Shown: positions 1,530 to 50,209 of the stretch, piece by piece
How the letters are laid out: each line of letters opens with the position of its first letter
Position numbering within the stretch: the first letter of the stretch is position 1
Source of the DNA: a virus
IMG/VR virus record: IMGVR_UViG_3300044826_000112
Reading direction: 5' to 3' (one strand)
DNA length: 64,000 nucleotides
Made by a program: the position numbers and the translations under genes
The notes under the pieces: model-generated
Told to the model about the DNA's origin: nothing
The model's database searches: none
What the model saw: the letters and a program-made list of their open reading frames with translations, nothing else

Positions 1530-3365
1530 TTAGTACTTACCGTCCTTGCCTTCACCGAACGCCCCACCGATCATGTATGGAGTAATCGGGTCGGTACCGC
1601 TGGTTTCAGCCTTGTGGCCCATAACCATGGCTTCACGCAGGCTCTTACCGAGCTGTTTGAACGCCAGACGGGATACCCAGTTGTCATCGTACAGCTTGGC
1701 AGTCTTGATGCCAGGTACGAGTGGGGTGATGGATAGACCGCTCTTAGATACCACTACGTTCTTCACGCCGTGAGATACTAAGTATGCCACATGGTTCTTA
1801 TCCAGCAGAGTACCCGGGGTGTATTCCAGAGCATGCTCAGCCAGTTGGCGACCAAAGGCCTTTTCAGTAGGGATGGTTTCCGCATCTTCACGCAGAGCGT
1901 TGTGGATGTGGTTGATGGAAACTACCTGGCCAGGCAGGAAGCCTGTGTTACCAGCGTCCTTGACTGTCACATACTTGACCAGGTTGCGAGCAATCAGGTC
2001 GAAGTGACGAGGATCCAGCTTGTTGCCGCCTTCTTGGTAGATGTGACGCAGCTGGTTGGACATGTAGGCACGACCAGTACCGATACCTCTTAATGAAGTC
2101 AGTTTACGCGGGTTTACAGTACCACTGGACAGAGGATCACCCTGTTTGATGGCATCACCTACGTGAACCTCTACATCCTGGCTGTTAGGAACGAAGTGCA
2201 TGGTGTTACCCACGAATACTCGGTGGTCCTTCAGTTCAGTCTGCTCGATCTTGCTCACGACACCGTCTACAGTGGAGATAACGGCTTCATCCTGGAAGTT
2301 CTCCGGGTTGGTCAGCAGGTTATCTGTCAGTTCGTACGGGTTGCTTGCCTTACCGGCTTTCGCATCGTGCTTGGTAGACAGGATCATCTGGGTCAGAACT
2401 TCGGATGCTGACTGAGCAGCTACTACACCTACGTTCTCCCCGATTTCCGGAACCTTACCGCGGGCGTTCAGCCCGTAGCACTTGCAGCACACGCCATCCT
2501 TAGCTTCACAGGTAAGTGTGGTGCGGATCTTGATGTTCGTCTTACCGGAGTGCTTGAGCTCGGAGTAATACGCCTCATCGATCAGCTTGTTGGTGCCGGC
2601 TTCGTAGTGGAACATGACACGCTTCTTGTCAGCTACTGGATACATCATACCGTTAGCAGTATGACAATCAGGTACGGTCACAACCTCATGATAGAGGTTA
2701 GGAGTGATCGACTTGAACATGTCACCTGGCTTACTGGTAGACAGCTGTGCCTGTACAACGTTACCACGACCCCAATAGGACATCGCCAGCTGCTCAGCAG
2801 CAGACAGACCTTCAGCGAAGGAGTGAGTGATGGCCAGAGGGATAGGAGTCCCGTCGATCTTCTTACTTTGGATAGGAGAAGAAGTACCTTGTTGCAGCTG
2901 GGATGGGTTACCACGAGCACCGGTCTGAGCCATGATTGCCGCGGTAGACTTCTTACCGAGCATGTACTCCAGGTTCTGCTTAGTCAGCAGCCCTTGATAC
3001 TTAGTGGTCGTGTCGATCAGCTTCTCGTTACGCTCACGAGTAGAGATATCTCCCAGGCCCATAATGTGGTTAACCTGTGTCTCATACTCCGCCAGCATAG
3101 CCTTACGCTCTTCACTGTCGTTGTAGTAGTCGGACAGCGGAGTGGAGTAGCCATGGTCAGTAGCAGTATTGAAGAACAGATTGGACACAGCAGTAATGGC
3201 ACGAGGGGCATCTTCTCCGCCGTGCGTAACGATGTCAGCGATAAGGTCCTTCACGCCGTTCTTGTCCAGAACACGGGTAGGATCGAATCGCTTTTGCACT
3301 TCCGGAGGCAGAAGACGCTTAACGCGAAGAGCTCCGGGTGTGATGATTCTTTCTGAATTGCTCAT
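1530..3365 (-). CDS. rpoC: DNA-directed RNA polymerase beta' subunit, C-terminal part (rpoC2-like)
   Basis: GARGNPSQLQQ and SFAEGL (pre-bridge and bridge helix), Zn site DCHT...TCEAKDGVCCKCYG, trigger loop GVVAAQSASEVLTQMILSTKH, DPRHFDLIARN; ATG at 3365 behind AAGAAGG. Confidence 0.93.
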   Translation of the reverse strand: MSNSERIITPGALRVKRLLPPEVQKRFDPTRVLDKNGVKDLIADIVTHGGEDAPRAITAVSNLFFNTATDHGYSTPLSDYYNDSEERKAMLAEYETQVNHIMGLGDISTRERNEKLIDTTTKYQGLLTKQNLEYMLGKKSTAAIMAQTGARGNPSQLQQGTSSPIQSKKIDGTPIPLAITHSFAEGLSAAEQLAMSYWGRGNVVQAQLSTSKPGDMFKSITPNLYHEVVTVPDCHTANGMMYPVADKKRVMFHYEAGTNKLIDEAYYSELKHSGKTNIKIRTTLTCEAKDGVCCKCYGLNARGKVPEIGENVGVVAAQSASEVLTQMILSTKHDAKAGKASNPYELTDNLLTNPENFQDEAVISTVDGVVSKIEQTELKDHRVFVGNTMHFVPNSQDVEVHVGDAIKQGDPLSSGTVNPRKLTSLRGIGTGRAYMSNQLRHIYQEGGNKLDPRHFDLIARNLVKYVTVKDAGNTGFLPGQVVSINHIHNALREDAETIPTEKAFGRQLAEHALEYTPGTLLDKNHVAYLVSHGVKNVVVSKSGLSITPLVPGIKTAKLYDDNWVSRLAFKQLGKSLREAMVMGHKAETSGTDPITPYMIGGAFGEGKDGKY

Positions 3366-3454
3366 TGCACACACCTTCTTGGTTGATCAACTAGCTCTAT
3401 TTTAGAGCTTACTGGTTTAGGCACATGTGTGTGGCCTCTTTGGGTCTGTGGCCG

Positions 3455-3775
3455 GTGTGTTCCAGGCCTCAAACCGCGTCCTGACAGCATTCTACTACAA
3501 AATGTGTGCGATGTGTCGATGTTCCACCTCCCAAACACACCCTATATCAGAAAATCCCAACCACCCCTCTCTATTTATTTATTTATATTTTCCTTACGAG
3601 AGATAGAGAGATATATAGAGAACGACACATTAGGTGTTTTAAGGAAGTAGGTATGTATTTTGGGGTGGAACACACGACACAACCGACACATACTGGCCGA
3701 AAAGCCTATGAAATCGTTGTTTTATGTGTCGATTAGACTCAAAATGACCCGACACATGACCTAAAAATGTTCCAG
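3455..3775. repeat. Palindromic iteron-rich non-coding element, copy 1
   Basis: Core 3502-3709 is the reverse complement of about 45716-45925 (shared TTTTCCTTACGAGAGATAGAGAGATATATAG and GTATGTATTTTGGGGTGGAACA..CGACACAACCGACACA); many GACACA/TGTGTC and TGTTCCA/TGGAACA units around an AT-rich centre. Confidence 0.9.
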
Positions 3776-4846: not shown

Positions 4847-7800
4847 TTACCCCTTGATCTTAATCGGAGTATTGTCGTCAATCTCGCCGCGTTCAAGAGC
4901 CTTCATAGCTTCATCTTCCGATGCAAACTCGACGACTGCCTTCTCGTGGTCCGGCTTGGTCAGGTGTACAGAACCCAGGATAGCTTCGTGACCAGGAGCA
5001 AACATCGGGTTACCGAAGCCCTTACGAGCATCGTGTAGGTGGTGTTCTGGCAACAGCTTCTCTTTCGCTTCCTTGATGGCCTCTGGGGACATCGGAACGA
5101 ACGCAGACATAGCGTCACCGTCATAGTCAGCAGCATAACCCGGCAGGTGCAGAATGTTAAGACCGATAGTCTTACCTGCAACTGGAATCGGCTTCAGGGC
5201 CATGATGTTGGTACGCATCAGGGTTGGAGCACGGTTCAGGATCAGCGGAACCTCGTCTACCATCTTGTTGAAGGACGCAGTAGCAGCGGTGTTACGCTCT
5301 TCGTACGCCTTCTTAGCAGCAGCCAGGTCGTAACCCTTCTGAGACAGGTCGCGGATGATGTGCATCTTGTACATCTCCCACAGCTGCTCTTTAGGGAACT
5401 TCGCTTCGTTGAAGCCTACGTCCGGAGCCGCGTAGATTACAGCACGACCAGAGAAGTCCTGCTTCTTACGCAGAATCTTGTCGTGGAAGTAACCGTACTT
5501 CGGAGAGGTAGTACCTGTGATGGAAGTCATCAGGCCCTTCACACCCTTCTGCTTGGATTCATAGTCGATAGGGTCACCACCGGCCATGATAGCCTTCGCA
5601 CCGGCATACAGGTCACGACGCAGATCCGCCATACCTTCCATATCCGGCAGTACCATATCCTTTCCGCCTGCCTCTTCGTAGATCTTGTTGATCCGATTGG
5701 AGACCAGCATGTGGTGTTGGTACAGCTTGTTCACGTCACCATACTCGATGTTCTGGTTGGTGATGGAGATTGGACGCATCTTCGGAGGGATGACCGGTAC
5801 ATGGTGCAGAACCATCGCCTTATCCAGCTCCTTGTGACCCTGAGAGTGCAGACCGTGCAGGAACTTCAGACGCTTGATGGCGTCGTTACGCTTGCTCACG
5901 GAGGTGCTCTTCTTGATAGCCTCTTTCAGGGCTTCAATTTCCTCTGCAGGATCGATGTCTTGAAGCATCTGCTTGAATGCTTCGCCGCCAACCTGAGGCT
6001 CGACGTACTCGTCGTACTTCTCGGCCTTCTTGGTGATGCCACCAATGATGCCTACCTGACGTAGAACCTTGTCGTTATCGTGGGTGTCGACGATGTCGTA
6101 CAGACCCTTCTCACGACGAACCACACCGTAACGGCCAGAAGTGATGTTGTCGAACTCCTTCTGGTTGATGTTCAGGATGGTCTTCAGCGGGTTCTCCAGG
6201 TTCGGGTTAACGATTGGCTCCGCCAGAGTGTAGTGAGACCACTTGCTCCCTTCGAAACCACCAGTGATGGTCTGGTCGAAGATAGAGCCAGGTTCGCCCT
6301 TCTGAGTACGAGCTTTCATGCTGATGGTGTTAGTCACCTGACCCTTGGAAAGGTTCAGCACGTCGTTATCGGTCATCGGACCGGCCTGCAGGAAACCTTC
6401 CTTATGGCTTACCTTGATACCAGAACCACGCAGGTAGTCCAGGAACTTCTTGGTAGCGAAGGTAGTCTTCGGCTGTGGCAGAGGCATACCCTTCATCAGA
6501 CGTTCCCAGTAATCGTGGGTGTCGGAGTTGATACCACCTTCGGACTTCACAGTGCCAATTTCCTTCAGGTTCTTACGAGCATCGGAGCCCAGCAGACCCA
6601 GGAATTCCATGTAAGACACGGCCTTGGCACCATCGTCACCGCCTTTGGTAGGTTGTGCGTTGTTGTCATAGCCACCTACGGAACGGGCAGAGTAGTTCGC
6701 GTCGGTAGTCTTGTTCAGCTTGATGATGTACTGAGGACCTGCAAGAACCTTGTCACCGATGGTCTTCCCGGAAACCGGGTCGTAAATTTCTTCGGTGTCA
6801 GACAGGTTGTGCTTCTTCAGATCATCCATCACTTTGACGATGTTGTTCTGGTTTTCGTAAACGACAGTCTTGTAAGGCTCGCCGGTCTTCTTGGCGATCT
6901 TCGCAGCTGCAGTTTCCAGAACTTGGCCCAGGTTGATACGAGAAGTAACAGACGCAGGGTTCAGCACCAGATCAACAGGCTTACCTGTATCACGGCTGTG
7001 CGGCATCTCGTGGTCTTCCATGATGTGGGAGATAACCCCCTTGTTACCGTGCAGACCAGTGATCTTGTCACCAATCTCCAGGTCACGCTCACAGCGAACC
7101 AGGATACGTACGTTCTCGGAGTCGGTGTAGACGTCTACAACTTCGCCCGGCTCTTCGTGATCCCACACCTCGGACACAACCTTGTACGGGTTGGTCAGAG
7201 TCTTGTAGAGACGACCTAGGACCTTGTCGGTCTCGGTAGCCTGACGCTCTTCCAGAACTGCAAAGACCGGATCACCGTACTCCAGCTTAGTGCCCTTCTT
7301 AGGGAAACCACGCTCATCCAGCTTAGCCAGCTGAGACGGAGTGAACTTGGAAGTCTGCTTGGACAGCAGAGCCTTGTTCGTCTTGGTAATCTTGGTGATG
7401 GTGTAGTCGAACTTGTAGGCATGGTGGCTACGCAGAGACTTAGTCGCAGAGCGAGATGCGACGATACCATCTTCGTGGTTGTAACCCTTGTAAGGCATGT
7501 AGGCCACGTGCAGGTTCTTACCGATGGCCAGTACGCCATCCTTGGTGTAGTTGTTGTCAGCCAGAGTCTGGCCGGCAGTCACCTTGTCACCTACCTTGTG
7601 CTGGTACGGTTCGTCATCATGGAATCCTTTCATGTTGAACGGCAGGTTCTTCACGAAGTCAACTACATGGTTCTTACCATCAGCACCCTTGATGTGGACT
7701 TCCTCGTCGGTAGCCTTGGTGATGATGCCGTCGGTAGGAGCCAGAGTAGAGATGATCTTCCCGATGTGGTGAACATAGGAGTGACCAGAGTTCGGATCCA

Positions 7801-9436
7801 CGGTTTGCACCAGCGGAGCTTCGCGACCAACCAGAGACAGAGCCTGCGGCAGTGCTTTACCAGCCATGGTCAGACGACCTGGGTGGTTACTGTTCAGGAA
7901 CGGCACAAGGTTAGTGGTGATGGTGTACATATCTGTACCAGACGGGATCCAGTACTGTACTTGCTCACGAGGAACTTTACGGAATTCCCCATTGACCTGG
8001 GCAGTAACGACAGGTTTGCCGTTATCTTTTTCTCCCGGGAAGCCAACTACGTGAACCATCAGCTCGTGGGTAGACAGGTACACTTCCTTGCCAGTCTTCG
8101 CATCGAGTGCACGGGAGTACATGGTACCCTCTTTGTCACGACGAGCGGTGATAGTGAAGCGTTGGTCCAGACCAGCCATACGGGATTCAGGCGTACGGGA
8201 CGGGTCGATGATGCCCAGATGGGATGGGTGCACGTTACGTGACTCCATAGGGGCAGACTGGTCGTCCTTGATACCACCCTCACCTTGACCGATGATGGTT
8301 ACCTTACCGACGTTCTCGAGGGATTCGATAGGGTTGGTTTCGTCCGGAGTACTTGCCAGCTGGGACTTGATGATGAAGTCTTCGAAGACGCGATTAAACG
8401 GCTTGGAAGGCAGAACCTTACGCAGGTCAGGAGCTGCATCATCGAGACGGCTCAGGTTGTACTTGATACGGTCGAAGCTACGGGTAACAGTCTGGTGTGC
8501 CTTGTTCTCGTCAAAACGACGAGCAATGAAGTCAGGCAGGTTCTGTACACGCTTGAACTGGAGGCTGTCACGGTTATCTTCCGGACGCTCACGACGGTAC
8601 AGAGCAACCAGGTTGCTGATGGCACGCAGGAAGACTTCACCATTCACATGGCTGAAGGATTTACCCAGGGTGATGCCAGTAGTGTCTTCGTTCAGAGAAC
8701 CTTCTTGGATACGACGACGAAGAGCCTCGATACGTTCCTCGTAAGAAGCGTTAGGGTTCATGTCACGTTGGTTCATCATACGGCGATACAGATCGCGGAT
8801 GATGCGGTCTTTCTGAGGCAGAACGGCCTTGTTGGCCTCCCAGATTTCCTTACGGATGAACTGGGTGATCTGAGCATCAGTGTAGCCGAAGACCTCGGTC
8901 AGTACTGGAGCTACAGGGAGCTTCACAGACTTATCGCCGATCTTGCTGAAGGTGATGATGTAAGTAGTCGGGTCCATCGCAATGGAGTAGCCCACACCGA
9001 CACCCGTGTTGAAATGGTTCTCTGGCTCGCCTGTGTTCTTACGGCGAGTGTACACACCAGGACGCAGCTGGATCAGGTTGGCAACGGAGTAGTTGTTACC
9101 CTTGTAGATCAGCGTGTGCTTGTTGGTGATGTGGAAAGTATCAGCCAGAGAGAAACGCTCGATCTTGTCGACGAGTTCTCCAGAGGCGATATCGTACAGA
9201 AGCAGAGTACCTTTCACCGGATAGGTTAGGGAGCCGGATTTCAGAATGGCTTCCTTCTCATGCTTATGAGAGAAATCCTTCTTGTCAACGTACAGGTCCT
9301 TTACATCAAGACGGTACTTGCCCGTCTCGATAGGGAACTGACGTTTGATCCCGTCCAGCATAGCCTGGTCGGTAGACTCGTTCATGTCTACTGGGCTGCT
9401 GAAAATAGGGATCAGTTGGTCAGGGCTCTTAGGCAT
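4847..9436 (-). CDS. rpoB: DNA-directed RNA polymerase: full beta subunit fused to the N-terminal/catalytic part of beta'
   Basis: Beta motifs RNVHPSHLGIIDPSRTPES, AYMPYKGYNHEDG, GDKITGLHGNKGVIS, LNPASVTSRINLGQVLE; beta' motifs VPVIPPKMRP, KKQDFSGRAVI, LNRAPTL and catalytic AADYDGD (5114-5134); junction near nt 6400. Confidence 0.95.
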   Translation of the reverse strand: MPKSPDQLIPIFSSPVDMNESTDQAMLDGIKRQFPIETGKYRLDVKDLYVDKKDFSHKHEKEAILKSGSLTYPVKGTLLLYDIASGELVDKIERFSLADTFHITNKHTLIYKGNNYSVANLIQLRPGVYTRRKNTGEPENHFNTGVGVGYSIAMDPTTYIITFSKIGDKSVKLPVAPVLTEVFGYTDAQITQFIRKEIWEANKAVLPQKDRIIRDLYRRMMNQRDMNPNASYEERIEALRRRIQEGSLNEDTTGITLGKSFSHVNGEVFLRAISNLVALYRRERPEDNRDSLQFKRVQNLPDFIARRFDENKAHQTVTRSFDRIKYNLSRLDDAAPDLRKVLPSKPFNRVFEDFIIKSQLASTPDETNPIESLENVGKVTIIGQGEGGIKDDQSAPMESRNVHPSHLGIIDPSRTPESRMAGLDQRFTITARRDKEGTMYSRALDAKTGKEVYLSTHELMVHVVGFPGEKDNGKPVVTAQVNGEFRKVPREQVQYWIPSGTDMYTITTNLVPFLNSNHPGRLTMAGKALPQALSLVGREAPLVQTVDPNSGHSYVHHIGKIISTLAPTDGIITKATDEEVHIKGADGKNHVVDFVKNLPFNMKGFHDDEPYQHKVGDKVTAGQTLADNNYTKDGVLAIGKNLHVAYMPYKGYNHEDGIVASRSATKSLRSHHAYKFDYTITKITKTNKALLSKQTSKFTPSQLAKLDERGFPKKGTKLEYGDPVFAVLEERQATETDKVLGRLYKTLTNPYKVVSEVWDHEEPGEVVDVYTDSENVRILVRCERDLEIGDKITGLHGNKGVISHIMEDHEMPHSRDTGKPVDLVLNPASVTSRINLGQVLETAAAKIAKKTGEPYKTVVYENQNNIVKVMDDLKKHNLSDTEEIYDPVSGKTIGDKVLAGPQYIIKLNKTTDANYSARSVGGYDNNAQPTKGGDDGAKAVSYMEFLGLLGSDARKNLKEIGTVKSEGGINSDTHDYWERLMKGMPLPQPKTTFATKKFLDYLRGSGIKVSHKEGFLQAGPMTDNDVLNLSKGQVTNTISMKARTQKGEPGSIFDQTITGGFEGSKWSHYTLAEPIVNPNLENPLKTILNINQKEFDNITSGRYGVVRREKGLYDIVDTHDNDKVLRQVGIIGGITKKAEKYDEYVEPQVGGEAFKQMLQDIDPAEEIEALKEAIKKSTSVSKRNDAIKRLKFLHGLHSQGHKELDKAMVLHHVPVIPPKMRPISITNQNIEYGDVNKLYQHHMLVSNRINKIYEEAGGKDMVLPDMEGMADLRRDLYAGAKAIMAGGDPIDYESKQKGVKGLMTSITGTTSPKYGYFHDKILRKKQDFSGRAVIYAAPDVGFNEAKFPKEQLWEMYKMHIIRDLSQKGYDLAAAKKAYEERNTAATASFNKMVDEVPLILNRAPTLMRTNIMALKPIPVAGKTIGLNILHLPGYAADYDGDAMSAFVPMSPEAIKEAKEKLLPEHHLHDARKGFGNPMFAPGHEAILGSVHLTKPDHEKAVVEFASEDEAMKALERGEIDDNTPIKIKG

Positions 9437-26581: not shown

Positions 26582-27196
26582 TTAGTTGTACTGCCAGATA
26601 TCGTCGGGGATCTGGCTGGAAATGTCAGAGTAATCAACGGTGATAGCCTGAACATCGTCTAGCGTCTTAGCCTTCTGAAGTCTATCCTCCAGGCCTTGAC
26701 GGCGTCCGAAGGTGGCACCGGAGATTTGTGCGAACAGATTTGCCTTCTCGATGATCCGATCGACCAGAATCTCCTTGTCGATGCCGCGGTAAAGGGCGAT
26801 AGCATCAGTCATAGGAGTCGGGTAGTTCGGGTCTCTGCGATAGTGCAAAGCTTCGATCTCTTGCTTGTACCATGAGACGATCTCCATCACAGGATAGATG
26901 GAGGTCACCTTGGATAAGGCCTCATCGGCCTTCAAATTGATCTCATTGAGTTTAGATCTTTTGGCCAAATCAAGAGTGTTGTAGATGGTATCACGGAATT
27001 CTAACCGGCCACTAACAACATACACGACTTTCCCTTTGTTTTGCTGACGGATGGCCGTGTCATAGACGTCATAGCTCACCTCTAGCGATGGGTACGGGAC
27101 TGTCGGAGAGGTGTTGGTGTCATAGAACCCCTTCACCTTGCCTGTACCTACGTCGTAGTGGATGTAATAGTAGATTACACCTTGAGAATCAGACAT
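26582..27196 (-). CDS. Tail fibre assembly protein/chaperone
   Basis: Directly after a fibre gene; GFYD...P N-terminus; AKRSKLNEI...YP..EI.SW..QE.EA...RGIDKEILVDRII pattern typical of fibre-assembly proteins. Confidence 0.75.
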   Translation of the reverse strand: MSDSQGVIYYYIHYDVGTGKVKGFYDTNTSPTVPYPSLEVSYDVYDTAIRQQNKGKVVYVVSGRLEFRDTIYNTLDLAKRSKLNEINLKADEALSKVTSIYPVMEIVSWYKQEIEALHYRRDPNYPTPMTDAIALYRGIDKEILVDRIIEKANLFAQISGATFGRRQGLEDRLQKAKTLDDVQAITVDYSDISSQIPDDIWQYN

Positions 27197-28571
27197 TTTG
27201 CTTACCCTCCAGCTTTTCCAGACGACGAGTCAGAGCAGTAATCGCAGCAGCTTGTACAGCAACGACACGCTCGTAAGTCATAGTCTTGTAGTTCTCCCCA
27301 GATTTAGAGACGATGGAGCCATCTTCTAAGGTTTCGTAATCGAACGGGGCGAGCGGAGTCAGCTCTGGGAAGTCCTTATTGACCTCGCCGGCCAACAGGC
27401 CTACTTCCAGCTTCCTAGGGTCATATCCGTACTTAGCACCTAGATCGTTAGCGTGGTAGCGAACTTTACGCCAGCGGTTCACAGCATCCAGGCAGAACTC
27501 CGGATCTAGCTCTTCGATAACCTCTTTGAGGCGCTCATCGGAGTAGTACGCAGTTACGTTGCTACCGAAAGCCCCTTCGCCTGCCGTGTAGAAGTTCTTA
27601 CCGTTGTACACACGGACCCAGGTGGTGTCGGTCATGTGCATGCCGCCACCGTAGGTTTCACTGTACCAACCGGAACCACCAATAGATCTGAACCAGTTAT
27701 TCGTGTACACGGTTCCGTAAGATCCGCCGTCTGCCATAGCACCGATTTCTGCCGGAGTAGGTTTTTGGTTACCGTTGTAGTTGACTACCCAGGCAGTCCA
27801 AGCCCCAGCGTTTACCTTGTAGCGGTAAGCGTGGCGTCCACTGGTATCCATGTAGTCCTGCCAGATCCAGTTGTTAGTGTTGTTGTGCGTGCCACCATCT
27901 GAAACCATGACCATAAGACGACCATAGATACCGCCGGCCCATGGGGCGTTAGGGACGTTAGCAGCTGATCCGAAGGTGTAGAAACCGTCAGAAAGTGCTG
28001 CGTTGAAGTCAGTCAGACTACCTCTATTTGTGTTGAAGTAGAGGGCATCGTGGTTGTGACTTGCAGACGCCGCACCGAGCCACGTCATCACCGCGGCAGG
28101 GTTGCTGCAGTATCGGGTGTAGTTATCCGTGCTGCTATTGGTGCGAAAAGCAATAGCACCATTCATAGTAGTCTGATCCGCGTAGCTAGCCCGCAGTAGA
28201 CGCACACTAATATCAGCACTGCCGTCGCGAAGGGCTAGTGTATTAGCAGTTGCGGCAGATGACTGATTGTTCAGGTCAGTGATATCAGCAGCAGTATGCG
28301 TGTGGGCAGTAGCTGGGAAAGTAGATGGCTTACCAGTGATACTCCCCCAGGCCGGAGACCCGAGGCCTGCAATGGCCGCCATGGCAGCGTCATAGGCTGC
28401 CTTTACGGCAGCACTTGTTGCGTACGTAGTAGAAGACGCAGTCGTGTAGCTATCAGACGCACCCCAGTTGTTAACACTGCCAAGACCGACAGTGGTTTTA
28501 TCCGGGAAGTAGTTCCCTGCGTGGTACGCAGCGAACCCCCCGATAGTTGTTCCAATTGATAAATCAGCCAT
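27189..28571 (-). CDS. Tail fibre protein with a C-terminal intramolecular chaperone (peptidase S74)
   Basis: ATSAAVKAAYD fibre repeat, KPTPAEIGA, NVTAYYSDERLKE autocleavage site, GLLAGEV...YERVVA. Confidence 0.9.
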   Translation of the reverse strand: MADLSIGTTIGGFAAYHAGNYFPDKTTVGLGSVNNWGASDSYTTASSTTYATSAAVKAAYDAAMAAIAGLGSPAWGSITGKPSTFPATAHTHTAADITDLNNQSSAATANTLALRDGSADISVRLLRASYADQTTMNGAIAFRTNSSTDNYTRYCSNPAAVMTWLGAASASHNHDALYFNTNRGSLTDFNAALSDGFYTFGSAANVPNAPWAGGIYGRLMVMVSDGGTHNNTNNWIWQDYMDTSGRHAYRYKVNAGAWTAWVVNYNGNQKPTPAEIGAMADGGSYGTVYTNNWFRSIGGSGWYSETYGGGMHMTDTTWVRVYNGKNFYTAGEGAFGSNVTAYYSDERLKEVIEELDPEFCLDAVNRWRKVRYHANDLGAKYGYDPRKLEVGLLAGEVNKDFPELTPLAPFDYETLEDGSIVSKSGENYKTMTYERVVAVQAAAITALTRRLEKLEGKQNV

Positions 28572-30378: not shown

Positions 30379-33300
30379 TTACGCGAAGGTGATCTCAAGG
30401 CATCCGGTGGTGCTATTGTACGCCATAGTTGGCCCGCCGATAAGCGTTAACGCATCGGTGACCAGACCAGTGCTGTTCACACGAGCTCTGGTAGTACCGC
30501 CGATACGCAACTGAATGTCTCTTGCTGCGTCTGCACTCAGATACAAGTTGTCGCCCGATTGGTGGATCTCGTTGGTATCGATACCTAGACCGTTGGCAGC
30601 AGTGCCGAACAGAGCCCAAGCTTTAGTCAGATCACCTCCACCGCCGATAGTGTTAGTACCGTTGGAGAAGATCATCTGGGCAGTAAAGGTGTCGCCACCC
30701 TTAGATGCCTTGCTTGTGTTCAATGCGTTGTACGCATCTGTCACCGCCTTCTCTGTAGCGTACTTGGAGGCAGAGCCGCCAGTGTAGCTGTTAGAGTACG
30801 TCCAGTTCTGCACGGAACCTAGGCCAACTTGAGCCGCGGTAGGAGCATTCCCCGTATGGAATACGGTACCAGATGCACCTGGGTTGATAGTCACTACACC
30901 GTTGTTAACACCCGCATCGCTACGAGTGATAATGTTAAGGGCACCGCTCGGGTTCATCTCAAAGATGGTGCGACGAACGTTATCCGCGTTACCGGTAGCT
31001 CTTAGTTCAAAGCCTGGGTAACTAGGGGTTTCCACTTTAACACCACTTGCTGAAGCACCTAATGCTACAGTTAGTGCACCAGACAAGATACCGCCGTTGG
31101 ACGGCAGAGCTCCTACCTGAGCAGCTGTAGGTAGGTAATTAGCGTGGAAGATGCGAGAGGTTGCACCGATACGCCAATCATCCGGGCCGTAGTAGCGAAG
31201 AGCTTGAGCCCACACCGGAATAGTGTCTGCGTTGAGTAGAGGAGCAATCTCTGCGTATCCATCTCCACCACCGATATGGATACCGCCAGAGGTAGTCCCT
31301 GCAACCTTACTGCGAATCACGCCAGTATCCGAGAAGATAGAGCCGTTAGCTACGATTCCTCCAGAGAAGATGCCGCCAGTCTTAGGCATTGCTGCCGCAG
31401 CCAGGTCATAGGCAGTCTTCACAGCACCAGCAGTTGCGTACTTGGTGTTGCTCGCATCATTTACCGCTGAGGTTGCACCCCAGTTGTTCACAGAACCAAG
31501 ACCTACGTCCGTAGCAGTAGGTTTGTTGCCAGCATGATACGCAAGGTTGCCCCTGATCTTCAGACCGGTATTGTCGATGCGAACCCATTCAACGCTAGCC
31601 CCACTCCCATCCATCCCAGTAGTGTAATGGCGGAATACGAAAGGCTCTACGTCATCATCGGTACTGTAGAACTCTAGTTCACCAGTATTAGTGTCCGGGT
31701 TAACACAGCGAATACCGAAGGCATCATTAGTCCCAGTAGGTAGGAATCGTAACCCTGAAGATAGACCGTTGCCAGTGAACAGAATTTCTCCAGAGATGTT
31801 ACCCCCAGTGCTGCTAAGGGCTCCTACTTCAGAGGCTGTTGGTTTGAATCCTTGGTGATATACGGTATATTCACTGTAGGTCTTATCGCCAACTCCTGAG
31901 TCCATACGGAATCTCATCTGACTAGCATTGTTGATGCTGATGAATTCGTCAGACTTGGTAGTGCTTCCGTTTCTTCTCCACAGCATGACATGACCGCCTT
32001 CTGCAGAAATACCTGCATAAGAACCATCTGCCTGTGTAGTGGTACGGAAACCGTTAGCAGCAAGACCGGTCAGAACACCAGTAAGGGTTGCTCCGCTCTT
32101 AGGTACGGCGGCGGCTGCTAGATCATACGCAGTTTTCACGGCAGCTGAAGTTGCGGCCATAGTTGCACTGGTGCTGTTTGTCGCACTGCTCAGCTGAACG
32201 ATACCCGCTGCAGACACAGAAGCTACCGGTACGCCGGTAATCTGAGCCCATGGGTGCGTGTGAGCAGCCGGAGTGAACGTAGTAGGAACGTTCAGAAGCT
32301 CGGTGTAATCAACACGATCCAGCTTGGTATAAACCTGAGTCCAATCAGTCCAAGATCCGCCAGCAGCTTTAGCACGCAGCATAAGCTTGTTGGCATCGCT
32401 CAACATGATTTGACCGCTTACGTCACCATGCAGGTTCAGCACGTTACCGTAATCAAGCGGATATCCGTTAGCAAACGCCTGGACCATAGACAGACCTGTA
32501 TAGGTCGGATCTGTAGTACCTGCCCATGCAGTTTGACGTCCTTGACTGATCACGTTGTAGTGGTTGTGAGCACTTGGCGTGAAGGTAGCTGGCTTATCGG
32601 TGATCTCACCCCAGATGTGGGTGTGAGCACTTGGAGCAAACTCAGTCGGCTTGTCAGTAATGTGAGCCCAAAGGTGAGTGTGGGCAGTCGGGGTGAATTC
32701 GGTTGGTTTACCGGTCACCTCAGCATAAGTCGGCCAGCGAGTAGCTTCAGCCGGCTTGTTAGTCACGTTAGCCCAATCTGGCAGGTTACCAAGGGAGAAT
32801 ACGCGGTTTGCACCGTCGAATACGCCTTGAGCCAGGATAGTCCCACGGAACTCCCAGTTGTTGCTGTTGTTGGCGTTACGAGCAGTCCACTCACGAACAC
32901 CTGCCGCAGTCTGACGGTATAGGATCAGGTTGTTCACACCGCCGCCAGCAAGGGCTACCCCTGCTGTGGATGCATCTGCAACCCCGCCGAATACCATACC
33001 GCCACCGATGGCGTTGCTTTTACCAACGTAGACTTCACCGGCACCAGTACCGTTACTGTAGGCGTTCAGGGAGCCTTTAACAGTAGATCCGTTACCTTGT
33101 ACGTTCACAGCTCGGCTGCTAGTGCTCGAGATGGTGATGTTGCCGGCCCCAGAGGAGTCAGCATCTGCACGATAGTAGCGACCATCGTGGTTGTGCGTAG
33201 TCAAAGAACGGTTGGTGATGTCAGTACGAATAGTCGTGATGACAGCCTGAGTGTTCAGCTTGGTGTTGAAGTTACCATCGTGGACGAAGTAGCCGATAGC

Positions 33301-35058
33301 CTGACCGTTGAACAGAGTGGAATCTACGGCCTTACCATTGATAGCCAGCTTGCCGTCAAGAGCCGCTTGTAGGCCTGCGATGTTGGCAATACCTAGGTTT
33401 TCCAAGTCGTGACGGTTCTGCTCGATGAAGTCTACGATCTCCTGAAGGCTGTTCAGGCTTTCGTTATCGACAGACATCAAGTTCTTCAGAGCGGCAATCT
33501 CGCCGCGAACAGTAGCAATGCCAGTAGAGGCATCCAGCTTCTCTTCGAAGTTACCATTGTGAGCGAAGTAGCCGATCTCTTTACCCATGAATAGGGCAGT
33601 ATCGGCAGCACGCTCAAGCTTACGCAGGTACTCTGTATCCAGCTGGGTGACACGCAGGTCAACGTATTCACGTTGTTCATCTACGTGCTGAGCGATACCG
33701 ATGATCTGAACGGTCTTGTTGCTGACGTCCAGAGACAACGCTTGCACTTCGTTACGAAGGCTACGAGTATCGTTGTTCAGCACCAGAGCTTCTGCCTTAG
33801 TATCTGCAAGAACCTTGTTGGTACTTACTACTTTGGCATCTAGATCAGCCTTGGCGACAACCAGATCATCGTTAAGATGCTGGATGTTTTGGTTCGCTTG
33901 GTTAGCCTGGTTGGTGTACTCCACCATCTGAGCTGTCAGAGTGGACACTTGAGACGCCAAGGACTCCGCAGAGGTGTTGGCAGTCTTAGCTGCACTGGTA
34001 GCTGCAGAGATTTGGTTGCGAACGTCTACGCTCAGAGTCTGGTAGTCCAGATTCAGCGTTGCGATGTTGGCATCTAGCTGAGTTAACAGCGAGTTAGCCT
34101 GGTCCAGCTTGATACCGGCAGCCTGAAGATCACTCTCCATGGCAGCTAAGCGGTTGGTCAGCTGGGTAGTAGTCGTGTTCACACTGGTAATCAGGTTGTT
34201 CACATCGCCGTTCACCTTGTTGACGTTAGCCTCAGCATCAGCAAGAGATGCGTTCAGCTGGTTGTAGGTGTTGGTGATCTGATCAAGCCGAGTAGAAAGC
34301 ACGTTAACGTCCACGACCAAAGAGTTGACCGTAGCGTACGCAGTGTTGGCAAGAGCCAGGGCATCCTTACTCTTGATGTCGCTTTCGTTAATGCGTTGGT
34401 TGATGGTGTTGATGTCAGCTACGCACTTAGCGATTTGATCGCTGATGGAGCTGATATTCGTGGCCGCAGTGACTACTTTCTGCTCCAGCACGCTCATACG
34501 AGACTCAAAGTCAGCTACGGATAGCTGGCTCTGTTGCAGATCAGTTGCTAGAGAAGTCAGTTGAGCACGCAGACCAGTAATGTCAGTTTCGGCCTGAGCG
34601 ATACGCCCCTGGATGTCACGTACCTTGATATTGGACGTGTTGATATCCGCCTCGATGGCTTTTGCAAGCACACCAAGGTTAGTGTAGAGGGTTTCCAGGT
34701 CTCGTTGAGCACCCTCAAGGGTGTCAAGTCGTCTGTCTAAGTCGTCTGCCTGAGTGTACATTCCGGCAAGGTCGTTACGAAGCTTCTGCGATTCTTGCAT
34801 GAACACTTCGTAAACGCCGGAGATGTCTTCTTGGGCTTGGTGGATGTCCTGTAAAGTCTTGTCTCTGACCTCTTCAAGGTCCGCTACCCCAGCATCAATC
34901 TTGTCGGTAGCGGCCTTGAGTTGAACGATCAGCGAATCCACATCGACGGAGACAGAATCGAGTAACGAGATCACGTACTTCGTCAGCTCGTTCGTAGAGA
35001 GAACAAGCTCGGACACTACTGTACGAGTCGGATCGTTGTACTTATTCTGGTCTGTCAT
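30379..35058 (-). CDS. Long tail fibre protein with an extended N-terminal coiled coil
   Basis: About 450 aa of heptad repeats, LNSLQEIVDFI, HTHxWxxITDKP repeats, GIVQLSSATNS..ATSAAVKTAYD repeats, KPTAxxVG linkers. Confidence 0.9.
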   Translation of the reverse strand: MTDQNKYNDPTRTVVSELVLSTNELTKYVISLLDSVSVDVDSLIVQLKAATDKIDAGVADLEEVRDKTLQDIHQAQEDISGVYEVFMQESQKLRNDLAGMYTQADDLDRRLDTLEGAQRDLETLYTNLGVLAKAIEADINTSNIKVRDIQGRIAQAETDITGLRAQLTSLATDLQQSQLSVADFESRMSVLEQKVVTAATNISSISDQIAKCVADINTINQRINESDIKSKDALALANTAYATVNSLVVDVNVLSTRLDQITNTYNQLNASLADAEANVNKVNGDVNNLITSVNTTTTQLTNRLAAMESDLQAAGIKLDQANSLLTQLDANIATLNLDYQTLSVDVRNQISAATSAAKTANTSAESLASQVSTLTAQMVEYTNQANQANQNIQHLNDDLVVAKADLDAKVVSTNKVLADTKAEALVLNNDTRSLRNEVQALSLDVSNKTVQIIGIAQHVDEQREYVDLRVTQLDTEYLRKLERAADTALFMGKEIGYFAHNGNFEEKLDASTGIATVRGEIAALKNLMSVDNESLNSLQEIVDFIEQNRHDLENLGIANIAGLQAALDGKLAINGKAVDSTLFNGQAIGYFVHDGNFNTKLNTQAVITTIRTDITNRSLTTHNHDGRYYRADADSSGAGNITISSTSSRAVNVQGNGSTVKGSLNAYSNGTGAGEVYVGKSNAIGGGMVFGGVADASTAGVALAGGGVNNLILYRQTAAGVREWTARNANNSNNWEFRGTILAQGVFDGANRVFSLGNLPDWANVTNKPAEATRWPTYAEVTGKPTEFTPTAHTHLWAHITDKPTEFAPSAHTHIWGEITDKPATFTPSAHNHYNVISQGRQTAWAGTTDPTYTGLSMVQAFANGYPLDYGNVLNLHGDVSGQIMLSDANKLMLRAKAAGGSWTDWTQVYTKLDRVDYTELLNVPTTFTPAAHTHPWAQITGVPVASVSAAGIVQLSSATNSTSATMAATSAAVKTAYDLAAAAVPKSGATLTGVLTGLAANGFRTTTQADGSYAGISAEGGHVMLWRRNGSTTKSDEFISINNASQMRFRMDSGVGDKTYSEYTVYHQGFKPTASEVGALSSTGGNISGEILFTGNGLSSGLRFLPTGTNDAFGIRCVNPDTNTGELEFYSTDDDVEPFVFRHYTTGMDGSGASVEWVRIDNTGLKIRGNLAYHAGNKPTATDVGLGSVNNWGATSAVNDASNTKYATAGAVKTAYDLAAAAMPKTGGIFSGGIVANGSIFSDTGVIRSKVAGTTSGGIHIGGGDGYAEIAPLLNADTIPVWAQALRYYGPDDWRIGATSRIFHANYLPTAAQVGALPSNGGILSGALTVALGASASGVKVETPSYPGFELRATGNADNVRRTIFEMNPSGALNIITRSDAGVNNGVVTINPGASGTVFHTGNAPTAAQVGLGSVQNWTYSNSYTGGSASKYATEKAVTDAYNALNTSKASKGGDTFTAQMIFSNGTNTIGGGGDLTKAWALFGTAANGLGIDTNEIHQSGDNLYLSADAARDIQLRIGGTTRARVNSTGLVTDALTLIGGPTMAYNSTTGCLEITFA

Positions 35059-45581: not shown

Positions 45582-45659
45582 GATTTGCCCGTTTTGATGA
45601 CATAGCTCCCCAGCTTCCCCCGGTGGTCCTCCTCAGCCCCGGGGGCTTTTTCTTTGTGC

Positions 45660-46003
45660 GATCGACACATGTGTCTGGTCACTTTGAGTCCTCACCACAC
45701 CGCATATCGTTGATTCCATAGGCTTTTTAAGGCCGATGTGTCGGTTGTGTCGATTGTTCCACCCCAAAATACATACTCCTTTCCTTAGAACACCCAATGT
45801 GTCTTATTCTATATATCTCTCTATCTCTCGTAAGGAAAATAAAAATAAATAAATAAGAGGGGCGGTTAGGGATTTTCATGTACGGGGTGTTTTTGGGCCC
45901 TGGAACACCGACACATCGCACACATCCGACCGGTTTTCATTGAGATACTCAAGAACTCCTAATCGACACATCGAAAAGTGCCTGGAACACATACGTGCAC
46001 ATT
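45660..46003. repeat. Palindromic iteron-rich non-coding element, copy 2 (inverted relative to copy 1)
   Basis: Reverse complement aligns with 3455-3760; arms ATGTGTCGGTTGTGTCGATTGTTCCA / TGGAACACCGACACATCGCACACAT; inner TTCCTTA...TAAGGAA; AT-rich centre. Confidence 0.9.
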
Positions 46004-46016
46004 TAGGCAGATCCTT

Positions 46017-46024
46017 GGTATAAT
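46017..46024 (+). promoter_or_regulatory. GGTATAAT promoter motif (also fits extended -10 TGnTATAAT)
   Basis: TTGGTATAAT about 33 nt upstream of the polymerase N-part ATG. Confidence 0.65.
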
Positions 46025-46056: not shown

Positions 46057-47418
46057 ATGGCAGTCGTCAAAAAGCTCAAGCCAATTGATATGACTCTTGA
46101 GCAACTATATGCTCATGAGAAATTCACACCTACTATCCGTAAAGCAATTCTCCTCAAGGAGGACTTCAGCAAGATCCAAGTGGACTATTGCGACAAGGTC
46201 TGTACTGTACCCAGTCGTATGAAGTGCCCGGACAACGTGTATCTGCAAACGTTCGATGAGCCGGTAGATATCCTGATTCTCCAAGAGCAAGTCCCTCTTG
46301 ATGAGAAGTGGAAAACCGGTCAGCAGGTCAACCGTATTCACCGCAAGATCATGGGCTACATGATGAACCAGGTGAATGACACCAACTTGTCTGTGGCATA
46401 CCTAGATCTCGTTAAGTGTCCGAACAAGTTCAACCCTGTGAAGGGTAAGCACAAGAATGCTACTGCTACGCAGATGGCGTCCTGTGCACCTTATCTTTAC
46501 GAGCAAATCCGGCAGGCTCGTCCAAAGGTAATCGTCAGTACCTCATCTGTGGCAACGAAGGTGCTGGGCTTGAAGAAGTCCAACTACAACAACCGTGGAG
46601 AGTTCCATCTGACAGACATCCCAGGCCTGGACTACCAGGTACCTGTGGTTCTGACTCTACACGCTTCTGTTTTAGTCATGATCCGGCAGAACGCCTCAGG
46701 CAAGATGTACGGTCCTGACTTCTTCTCAGTCATCCGTCGCGACTTCCAGAAGGCATGCGATCTGGCCAACCAGAAGTATGCAGCTGGTGATGTCCGCCTA
46801 GCTATTCAGCAGCTGAAAGCCAGGGGTGCAATCCAGTACTGCAAGAACATGGATGACGTTAAGAAGTACTATAACGAAATCATGGCCTTGCCTGAGAACG
46901 CAGTGTTCTCCTGGGATACGGAAACGACATCTCTCGACCCATGGTCAGACGATGCTCGACTCCTCTGCTCGCAGTTCGGATGGCGCCGGCCAGATGGCTC
47001 TCTCATTGGGGTATCCTTCCCGCTTTGGCACAAGGACAACCCGATGAATCCAGATATCATCTGGGACTATGTAGTGGACATCTTGATGCGGCCTAACCCG
47101 AAGGTTGGCCACAACGTCAAGTTTGATATCGTGTTCACTGAGGTGACCACAGGTATCCGTCCGGTCAACGTCTGCTTCGATACTCTGCTATGTGCTCACA
47201 GCATCAACAGTGGTATTCAGCAGAACTATAGCCTGAAGACTGTCATCTGGGATTGGACTCCGGAGACTGGCCTGGGCGGCTATGAAGACCTTCTGGATGA
47301 AAGTCTGACCGAGGAGCAGGTTGCCCTCATCAAGGCGGAGCTCAAGAAGGAACGTGACGCCAAGAAGGCGTTGGGATTAACCGACTCCGACGACGAAGAA
47401 GAGGAGTCAGAAGAATGA
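46057..47418 (+). CDS. DNA polymerase family A, N-terminal part (UDG-like domain plus partial 3'-5' exonuclease)
   Basis: UDG family-4-like LVKCP...CAPYLYEQIRQARPKVIV...LTLHAS; ExoI WDTETTSLD; ExoII GHNVKFDI; FDTLL..H; acidic tail. Confidence 0.85.
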   Translation: MAVVKKLKPIDMTLEQLYAHEKFTPTIRKAILLKEDFSKIQVDYCDKVCTVPSRMKCPDNVYLQTFDEPVDILILQEQVPLDEKWKTGQQVNRIHRKIMGYMMNQVNDTNLSVAYLDLVKCPNKFNPVKGKHKNATATQMASCAPYLYEQIRQARPKVIVSTSSVATKVLGLKKSNYNNRGEFHLTDIPGLDYQVPVVLTLHASVLVMIRQNASGKMYGPDFFSVIRRDFQKACDLANQKYAAGDVRLAIQQLKARGAIQYCKNMDDVKKYYNEIMALPENAVFSWDTETTSLDPWSDDARLLCSQFGWRRPDGSLIGVSFPLWHKDNPMNPDIIWDYVVDILMRPNPKVGHNVKFDIVFTEVTTGIRPVNVCFDTLLCAHSINSGIQQNYSLKTVIWDWTPETGLGGYEDLLDESLTEEQVALIKAELKKERDAKKALGLTDSDDEEEESEE

Positions 47419-48386: not shown

Positions 48387-48881
48387 ATGCAAGGTCGTGA
48401 CTATCTCTTGGGCGTACAGCCCATCTCTCAAGTAATCGGTGAGATTATTCATCCAACCGATCCCCTGTTCTCTCAGATCCCCGGCATGTATGCCGTCAAG
48501 GTTCTGTCCCTGCCGATTCTCCCAAGCATGTACGAGGATATCTCTCGTAGTGCTGCGAGTGTTCTCTCGGTAGGTGACATCATCCTGGTCAGCGGATTCA
48601 CTACTGTGTACACCGATGAGCAGCTGCGTTCTGACGCAGCAGAGAACTCCTGGAACAGCGTTATAACTAGCGAGCTTCGCTACACGCAACGTCTGATAGA
48701 GGAGACTCGAGACGGTGGGGCTGAAGTTGGACATCCCGTGGCTGTAGATGATTCTCCAGTGCTTAACGGAGATCTGGCTCAAGCTACCATCCGTCGTTCT
48801 ATCGAAGACGATGTAACCCTGTACGCATCTATTAACCCGAGCAATATCTTCGGGAAGGTGTTGCAAGGTTGTGCTCGTTGA
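48387..48881 (+). CDS. Hypothetical protein
   Basis: GAGGAG RBS, 164 aa. Confidence 0.75.
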   Translation: MQGRDYLLGVQPISQVIGEIIHPTDPLFSQIPGMYAVKVLSLPILPSMYEDISRSAASVLSVGDIILVSGFTTVYTDEQLRSDAAENSWNSVITSELRYTQRLIEETRDGGAEVGHPVAVDDSPVLNGDLAQATIRRSIEDDVTLYASINPSNIFGKVLQGCAR

Positions 48882-48948
48882 ACTATATTATCCCAAGTGC
48901 GGAGTTGACCGCCTAACTACAACTTACCCTCATCTAGGAGTTGACCTT

Positions 48949-50199
48949 ATGAGTAAGAAAGCCACCCTTGCCGTGATCTTTGGTCGCTGGCAGCCCCTCC
49001 ACAACGGCCACCTGACCCTGTTTCAGGAAGCCGTTAAAAGTGCCAAGCATGTTCTCGTGTTCGTTGGCTCTTCCAATAAACCCCGTACCCCACAGAACCC
49101 GTTCTCAGCTGAAGAACGTATCGACATGATCTACAAGGTCTTCGAGAGCGGTCTCGAAGAGCAGCTTGAAGGCATGTACGACGTCGTCCCTTTGCCTGAC
49201 TCTTACATGGATTCCGTGTGGAGTACTGACGTTCGCCGCCTGGTTAACTCCTTTGCGTGTGACGTCGTTGCTGATTACGGTGATGAGATCCTCGATTCGG
49301 ATATCCTCGTCGTAGGTCACGAGAAGGATGACTCCAGCTACTATCTGAACATCTTCCCTGAGTGGAACGTGAAGAAAGTGCCGAACTTCAATGGCTTGAA
49401 CGCCACTGATATTCGTAACGAGCTGTTCAATCGTAAGCGTCCGGTAGACCCAGGATTCACTAACCGCATCGCCAAGTACTTGGCAGTGTGGTGCGGTAAG
49501 TCTGAGACTGAAGTCCAGATGTTCATGGACACTCGTCTGCGGAAGGACCTGCCTGCCCAAGTCGATCCTAAGGCCTCTGAGGAGCTCTCTAAGCAACTCC
49601 GACCGCTGGACCTAACCTACCTATCCATCAACGTGCCGGAAGGCGTACGCGAGTTCCTACGCGGTTACATGACTACAGACTCATACTTGGACATGATCGA
49701 GGAGACCTTCTCTTATGCATGCAACAAGATGACCTGGGGTCTGGCTCCGTACGCTCCTACCTTCGTGACTGTCGATGCGGTAGTGACCATGAAGGGTCAC
49801 GTACTGTTGATCCGTCGCAAGCAGTCTCCTGGCCGCGGCCTGTGGGCTCTGCCTGGCGGGTTCATCGATCAGGAAAATCCCCTGGTCGACAACGTGATTC
49901 GCGAGCTTCGTGAGGAGACTCGCATCTCCATCCCGAACAACAAGCTCAAGGACTGCATCACCAAGATGATTACTGTGGATGATCCGTACCGCAGTAAGCG
50001 TGGCCGCACTATCACCCATGCTGCTCACATCGATCTGGACAAACTCCCTGATAGTGACATTCAACAGCTCCCGACCGTACGCGGTTGTGACGATGCCGAG
50101 AAGGCACGCTGGTTCACCTTCAGTGAAGTTCTGGATTTCGGCTCTACCCTGTTCGAAGACCATGCAGAAATCATCAAACGTCTCGTATTCAGCAAGTAA
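48949..50199 (+). CDS. Bifunctional NMN adenylyltransferase / Nudix ADP-ribose pyrophosphatase (NadM-Nudix)
   Basis: GRWQPLHNGH, GHEKDDSSYYL..FPEW, NATDIR; TFVTVDAVV, ALPGGF...RELREET Nudix box, DDAEKARW, FEDH. Confidence 0.93.
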   Translation: MSKKATLAVIFGRWQPLHNGHLTLFQEAVKSAKHVLVFVGSSNKPRTPQNPFSAEERIDMIYKVFESGLEEQLEGMYDVVPLPDSYMDSVWSTDVRRLVNSFACDVVADYGDEILDSDILVVGHEKDDSSYYLNIFPEWNVKKVPNFNGLNATDIRNELFNRKRPVDPGFTNRIAKYLAVWCGKSETEVQMFMDTRLRKDLPAQVDPKASEELSKQLRPLDLTYLSINVPEGVREFLRGYMTTDSYLDMIEETFSYACNKMTWGLAPYAPTFVTVDAVVTMKGHVLLIRRKQSPGRGLWALPGGFIDQENPLVDNVIRELREETRISIPNNKLKDCITKMITVDDPYRSKRGRTITHAAHIDLDKLPDSDIQQLPTVRGCDDAEKARWFTFSEVLDFGSTLFEDHAEIIKRLVFSK

Positions 50200-50209
50200 G
50201 GAAACTGCT

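Follow-up and report, generated by a model that had tools for sequence, protein, structure and literature searches.

Five dispersed palindromic iteron elements as candidate replication origins in a large phage genome and its relatives

Abstract

The genome of a large phage (IMG/VR virus record IMGVR_UViG_3300044826_000112) carries five dispersed copies of a palindromic element, in which inverted arms of short iterons enclose the most easily melted sequences of the whole chromosome. We read these elements as cis-acting DNA sites and, tentatively, as five candidate origins of lytic replication, the likeliest of the functions weighed here from sequence comparison. Families of the same architecture, built on different iterons, were recovered from six related genomes, including those of cultured phages.

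To our knowledge, replication origins have been mapped in only a few large lytic phages, where they are single or irregular. None of the papers listed by literature searches dealt with elements of such a kind in phages. Multiple-origin-like palindromes have not previously been described for the phage group of Salmonella phage Arash, and their fixed copy number, even spacing, positional conservation and concerted evolution are unusual. The paper describing Arash mentions no repeats, promoters, origins or genome ends (PMC10585845).

Results

Copy number and anatomy of the element

The original prediction, made on a 64,000-nt stretch of this record (hereafter the window), placed two intergenic copies of a duplicated element there. 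Both were found at these places, inverted relative to each other: copy A at window positions 3502–3760 (+), for the part homologous to the other copies by blastn and alignment, and copy B at 45668–45925 (−). Their homology is real and extends beyond the ~210-bp shared core first proposed, over ~257 nt with 82% identity (blastn E 2e-63). Searching the parent record (175,261 bp, estimated to be 98% complete) with the element and comparing the genome with itself raised the total from two copies to five, each ~257–260 bp long (E 1e-59 to 1e-84; pairwise identity 81–88%). They lie at genome positions 30,502–30,761 (c30k, −), 71,541–71,799 (c71k, −), 100,026–100,282 (c100k, which is copy A, +), 142,192–142,449 (c142k, which is copy B, −) and 167,475–167,732 (c167k, −). 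Self-comparison revealed this family as the sole large dispersed repeat of the genome, and each locus consists of a single unit with fuzzy ends and no tandem array.

In the five-copy alignment, read in the orientation of copy A, the unit comprises a left arm, a variable spacer, a 47-bp core, a reverse iteron, a second variable spacer, a right arm and a tail. The left arm is formed by ATGTGTGC then ATGTGTCG, with a 9-bp period, followed by TGTTCCA; the right arm is its inverted counterpart, with GGGGTGGAACA followed by the doublet CGACACAAC-CGACACAT; and the tail contains an AAAAGCC box with one to three extra iterons. The two inverted arms of each unit stand ~150–170 bp apart, and all 22 genomic occurrences of the CGACACAT octamer fall inside the five elements.

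On the plus strand of the window, copy A has a left arm (3503–3526) made of the iteron doublet TGTGTGC/TGTGTCG, with a 9-bp period, and TGTTCCA. It continues with the variable spacer V1 (3527–3571), which occurs as two haplotypes across the genome's five copies and whose changes find no compensation in the opposite arm. The 47-bp AT-rich core, a candidate unwinding element (3572–3618), is identical in 5/5 copies except for one A/T position, and is followed by the internal reverse iteron CGACACA (3623–3629). The right arm (3666–3690), the inverse of the left one, joins TGGAACA to the doublet CGACACA/CGACACA, again with a 9-bp period. The tail (3691–3774) holds the AAAAGCC box, iterons at 3725–3731 and 3750–3756, and TGTTCCA at 3768–3774. 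Copy B, read on the minus strand, has its left arm, an iteron doublet with TGTTCCA, at 45901–45924, and an AT-rich core at 45809–45855 that differs from that of copy A at the single variable position. Its right arm (45737–45761) carries TGGAACA and the iteron doublet with its 9-bp period, and its tail (45663–45736) includes the palindromic iteron pair CGACACATGTGTCG at 45663–45676.

Most of the anatomy first described for these two copies held up. The outer arms and the AT-rich TATTTATTTATTT / GAGAGATAGAGAGATATATAG centre are all there, GACACA hexamers number six and seven per copy as counted before, and the nested palindrome is borne out by the strands of copy A, which fold far beyond shuffled sequences (z −5.0 and −5.5). 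The inner TTCCTTA/TAAGGAA arms are present in both copies, but their pairing is preserved in just three of the five genome copies. Both strands of copy A fold equally well, so the palindrome belongs to the duplex and not to one strand. A protein-coding role was considered and rejected: ORFs of 64–81 aa cross the copies, but indels of 1 and 2 nt between copies break the frame, leaving no conserved reading frame.

Equivalent families in related phages

The nearest cultured relatives, as judged by the RNA polymerase beta'C protein, are Salmonella phage Arash (65% amino acid identity) and Vibrio phages D69, D181 and D148 (54%). The element matched none of 50,697 phage records by blastn, and a single-protein search of viral contigs with the N-terminal part of the DNA polymerase found nothing. 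Self-comparison of each relative nevertheless revealed an equivalent repeat family, with five copies of ~210–240 bp in Arash (85–97% alike), five co-oriented copies in each of four IMG/VR genomes (G001, G002, G003 and G004; 172–183 kb, complete), and three copies of ~390 bp, more palindromic, in D69. No comparable five-copy element was found in the distant RNA polymerase-encoding phages Ralstonia RP13 and Rhizobium RHph_TM30.

The architecture is common to all of these families: inverted arms with tandem doublets (8–9-bp period), an AT-rich and near-invariant centre, and two additional repeats in the tail. What changes from phage to phage is the sequence of the repeat, with TGTGTCG in this genome, TGTGACA/TGTCACA in G004, CGTTGTAAC in Arash and G001, GATACG/CGTAC types in G002 and G003, and ATGTTGCAA in D69, and in each of the seven genomes the best iteron 8-mers are almost confined to the elements. 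Co-evolution of the sites with a binding protein would be expected to yield such phage-specific iterons.

The three elements of D69, at 67.3, 125.2 and 185.4 kb, are almost fully palindromic (self-match on both strands), with GC-rich terminator-like hairpins flanking the centre on both sides. The intergenic region upstream of beta'C in D69 is not repeated in that genome. In metatranscriptome run X18, long contigs 90–95% identical to this region break exactly at the repeat core (window 3552–3641). This indicates that a related strain has the element at the same place and that the repeat fragments assemblies.

Conserved positions, even spacing and concerted evolution

The five positions are syntenic in 6/6 five-copy genomes, as established with marker proteins: the HU-like gene, the phosphatase–ribonucleotide reductase operon, the small gene p162, beta'C and the polymerase N-terminal gene. 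Gaps between neighbouring copies measure 31–40 kb in Arash and G001–G004 and 25–42 kb in this genome, and 58, 60 and 69 kb between the three copies of D69. When the observed arrangements were compared with random placement on a circle, using the chance that all gaps equal or exceed the smallest observed gap, the spacing was more even than random in each genome (P 2e-5 to 6e-3 per genome), the five-copy genomes being non-independent in this test through their shared synteny and D69 partly independent.

Copies resemble each other more within a genome (78.5% identity for the pair Arash/G001, 72.7% for G002/G003) than they resemble the copy at the same position in the other genome of the pair (67.7% and 69.3%, respectively), which is the mark of concerted evolution; identity between different positions in different genomes is 64.5% and 65.4%. 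Read from these sequences, the pattern points to an old five-copy arrangement that would have been homogenised inside each genome.

All five copies are co-oriented in 5/6 five-copy genomes, and in the present one copy A alone opposes the other four. Relative to the flanking genes, orientation is kept between this genome and Arash for four of the five copies, copy A being the flipped one. It is only because of this flip that an inversion by recombination can occur here, and recombination between copies could possibly invert the intervening DNA. By eye, the element centre of this genome also matches that of Arash better when reversed relative to the arms and tail.

Duplex stability and word composition

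Nearest-neighbour duplex stability was computed over the whole genome in segments of 50 bp. The five element cores are the five least stable segments (ranks 1–5), at ~−51 to −52 kcal/mol against a genome mean of −71.0 (SD 3.6). The centres also lie ~5 SD under the mean and hold ranks 1–5 in Arash, G001, G002 and G003, as they do here; the corresponding ranks are 1, 2, 3, 5 and 6 in G004 and 4–6 in the AT-richer D69.

The genome contains 11 TATAAT words for ~86 expected; five of its six ATATATA words are within the elements, and TATATAA is likewise almost confined to them. Outside the elements, TATA-type words are strongly avoided both here and in Arash, as if stray −10-like or easily melted stretches were selected against. 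Along the genome, GC and AT skew show no switch at the elements and track the gene strand, and neither host DnaA boxes nor the IHF consensus is enriched at the elements.

Neighbouring genes, promoters and transcripts

Copy A separates a 235-aa ORF from the RNA polymerase beta'C gene, with the gene of a beta-beta'N fusion further upstream. Copy B and the adjacent promoter precede a gene that encodes the N-terminal portion of a family-A DNA polymerase, with uracil-DNA glycosylase (UDG) and 3'-5' exonuclease domains. The association with split polymerases noted originally applies to these two copies and not to the other three. One of these is upstream of an operon for a dNMP phosphatase and ribonucleotide reductase (RNR); c71k is ~275 bp upstream of p162, which is followed by a reverse transcriptase (RT); and another is ~1 kb from an HU/IHF-family gene, with a nucleotidyltransferase-like ORF in between. 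Nor does the orientation claimed to be shared relative to the polymerase halves carry over to Arash, whose copy near beta'C is oriented the opposite way. The association with split polymerase halves is incidental.

An HU-family homologue stands beside one element in 6/6 five-copy genomes, at <0.3 kb in Arash and three relatives and up to ~1 kb in this genome. The gene in question here (genome 166154–166429, −, outside the window) encodes ~91 aa matching PF00216 (E 8e-30). The small gene p162 has no informative look-alike in the protein atlas. A search for a ParB_N domain, relevant to a ParB–parS site, found none in the genome while its controls were positive.

Both polymerases of the window are split. 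The RNA polymerase comprises the beta-beta'N fusion (1529 aa, 4847–9436, −) and a separate beta'C (614 aa, 1530–3374, −); in Arash, the homologous subunits and a sigma-like protein are reported to be the proteins found most abundantly with virions (PMC10585845). The DNA polymerase is divided between 46057–47418 (UDG and 3'-5' exonuclease) and 52681–54243 (polymerase domain), ~5 kb apart, with the NAD-salvage genes NMNAT-NUDIX (48871–50199) and NAMPT (49979–51736) in between. The window also carries three tandem 57-nt (19-codon) repeats at 32560–32730, inside a 1559-aa ORF (30379–35058, −), and a fourth, diverged repeat at 28296–28352 in the neighbouring 460-aa ORF (27189–28571, −), ~4.3 kb away; the proteins that bear these repeats are probably tail or fibre components.

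The operon upstream of copy B has a terminator-like hairpin (45628–45647, +) that stops just short of the element, and a sigma-70-like promoter with an extended −10 (TGGTATAAT; 45996–46024, +) lies between copy B and the polymerase N-terminal gene. Being placed between a terminator and a promoter, copy B is probably outside the flanking mRNAs. A GGTATAA motif pointing away from the element is found 110–194 bp from its centre at the RNR, polymerase N-terminal and p162 copies (3/5) in five of the six five-copy genomes, and at the p162 and polymerase copies only (2/5) in this one. The HU and beta'C copies have no adjacent GGTATAA promoter, at least two of the five copies lack one in every genome, and ~40 GGTATAA sites per genome stand without an element. 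In this genome, the motif occurs 46 times on the plus strand and once on the minus strand (n = 47, e.g. window 46017–46023), often as TGGTATAA, an extended −10, and in Arash 40/41 are on the minus strand. GGTATAA probably serves as promoter for a single temporal class of genes, all read in one direction.

In four RNA libraries, contigs span the genes as well as the element, and in one run the repeat core reaches ~2.4–3.7 times the depth of its flanks, which is expected of a collapsed repeat and says nothing on transcription or replication.

Discussion

A tentative model of five replication origins

The dispersed origin or enhancer role first proposed for the element gained support from its five copies, meltable centres, even spacing, positions conserved in six genomes and phage-specific iterons, features that do not by themselves prove origin activity. 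If the elements are indeed lytic origins, a putative phage-encoded, sequence-specific initiator would bind the iterons, its specificity having drifted along with them, and a bending protein would join the arms. The phage HU/IHF-family protein is a candidate for the latter, given its gene beside one copy in the six five-copy genomes. The AT-rich core would then open, and the Toprim primase-helicase encoded by the genome would be loaded there with the family-A polymerase. With a roughly even spacing of ~35 kb, five such origins would allow rapid replication of the 175-kb genome, while the likeness of the copies would be maintained by gene conversion. Since an early-type promoter is found at a fixed distance from two or three copies out of five, initiation may be linked to transcription, or the element may also serve as an upstream activating site.

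Several observations sit less easily with this model. In the search for a cognate initiator, only the HU-family gene was found beside one copy, and DnaA boxes were not enriched. The near-invariant centre, of 47–110 bp, is more strongly constrained than a plain unwinding element would require, and a promoter or other specific site could lie within it. The promoters at fixed distance, finally, fit an enhancer equally well as an origin.

Weighing the other functions

The main rival, ranked second and in our view less likely, is a transcriptional enhancer or architectural site devoid of origin activity, at which an iteron-binding regulator and the HU-like protein would form a loop complex, switching the early or middle promoters of adjacent operons for replication and nucleotide metabolism. 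The outward GGTATAA motifs near 3/5 copies in 5/6 genomes (2/5 here), the 46:1 strand bias of this motif genome-wide and the neighbours, which are mostly DNA, RNA or nucleotide-metabolism genes, would all agree with such a switch, and TF1 of SPO1, a phage HU homologue that binds specific promoter sites, offers a precedent. This reading is demoted by the promoterless HU and beta'C copies, with at least 2/5 copies in every genome lacking an adjacent promoter, and by the ~40 GGTATAA sites per genome that work without an element; furthermore, a regulator of single promoters explains neither the even spacing nor the location of the most meltable sequences at the element centres. Sites for handling the chromosome, whether pac-like, partition-like, domain-organising or hot spots starting recombination-dependent replication, would account for the roughly even spacing and for the co-orientation of the copies in 5/6 genomes. 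Two clusters of short repeats round a bendable centre are also reminiscent of P1 pac and P1 parS, two sites that work with IHF or HU, and the circle-closing assemblies of the relatives are compatible with headful packaging. We nevertheless consider such sites improbable, as the genome has no ParB_N domain and, in Arash, the elements are all away from the terminase gene; we also know of no precedent for five pac sites. At similarly long odds, the elements could form a genome-wide organising array of about five loading sites, one per ~35 kb, each nucleating the iteron-binding and HU-like proteins and together delimiting equal domains. Were this so, the array would couple replication start, early transcription and perhaps DNA condensation or protection, as a phage counterpart of the hr or oriLyt hubs of eukaryotic viruses, and the unit length itself would be under selection (three sites ~62 kb apart in D69).

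A structured RNA had been put forward as an alternative from the start, as a non-coding RNA gene or conserved 5' leader in five copies, and it now appears very improbable. The sequence does fold into a long hairpin, contigs of RNA libraries cover it, and several G-U pairs occur on one strand of the central hairpin, as the G-U argument had stated for this genome. However, these pairs are not seen in relatives, the centre of Arash pairing through A-T. The covariation term of RNAalifold is positive, hence unfavourable, on both strands; compensated changes affect just 3 and 7 of 83 pairs, and pairing is lost at many of the variable ones, as in an arm where CCACCC and CCAGGG face an invariant GGGGTGG. 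In addition, both DNA strands fold equally, no Rfam family matches at the gathering score or at E<=1 (group I/II introns included), promoters lie between element and downstream gene, and library depth over the element is only about the copy number. Terminal inverted repeats in five dispersed copies, one of them upstream of a small gene and then an RT, could also evoke a MITE-like mobile element, or the template or target of that RT in a retron or diversity-generating retroelement (DGR), which we find hardly credible. The five positions are fixed across six genomes whose proteins are just 35–65% identical, which excludes recent movement; no transposase was seen, and differences between copies are not adenine-specific, which speaks against a DGR. 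The RT adjoins a single copy and is absent from the 6/6 relatives that keep the elements. A tblastn search (E<=1e-3) with this retron-like RT (genome 72421–73434, +, outside the window, beside c71k) gave no match in Arash, G001–G004 or D69. Given this result and the conservation of p162 across the five Arash-type genomes, the RT appears to have been inserted recently in the present genome.

Implications and comparison with known systems

The candidate-origin reading is opened to experiment by the culturable members of this lineage (Salmonella phage Arash; Vibrio phages D69, D148 and D181), as five sequence-defined sites, with iterons changed from phage to phage, raise testable questions. These include whether some phages are multi-origin replicons, as are large DNA viruses of eukaryotes, how an initiator and its iterons co-evolve under gene conversion, and why the spacing is kept. 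For genome reconstruction, the elements also represent repeat boundaries that break the assemblies of these phages.

The layout of iterons next to a DNA unwinding element (DUE) matches that of lambda ori, P1 oriR, SPP1 oriL/oriR and HSV oriS/oriL. As in lambda ori, P1 oriR, P4 ori/crr and SPP1 oriL/oriR, clusters of short repeats adjoin an AT-rich unwinding region; SPP1 and P4 also have two separated repeat-bearing sites, and host or phage bending proteins often help iteron-type origins. By contrast, the known phage cases number one or two sites, usually in or beside the initiator gene, with iterons that are usually direct repeats of 17–22 bp, and we know of no iteron-type phage origin present in five evenly spaced copies that evolve in concert. 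P1 parS and pac share with the element two kinds of short repeats in two clusters round a centre that needs IHF or HU, but each is a single site of 80–160 bp per genome with a known partner, ParB or pacase, and no ParB domain was found here.

The closest parallels come from viruses of eukaryotes. HSV-1 oriS/oriL likewise have an AT-rich, easily melted palindromic centre between inverted boxes, there bound by the origin-binding protein, and occur in several non-coding copies per genome beside promoters of replication genes, oriL lying between the genes for DNA polymerase and ssDNA-binding protein. They differ in sequence, with no similarity to the phage elements, and no UL9-like origin-binding protein was identified here; the phage elements, which are candidate origins only, number five, are roughly evenly spaced and carry tandem 8–9-bp doublets in their arms and sites in their tail. 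Baculovirus hr elements are similarly dispersed, non-coding imperfect palindromes of a large dsDNA virus, considered as candidate origins and enhancers and homogenised within a genome, and from one relative to another they keep their positions but not their sequences. An hr, however, is a tandem array of ~30-bp palindromes set in ~70-bp repeat units that bind IE1, whereas each phage locus is a single unit, ~260 bp long (in D69, ~390 bp), built around a unique AT-rich centre.
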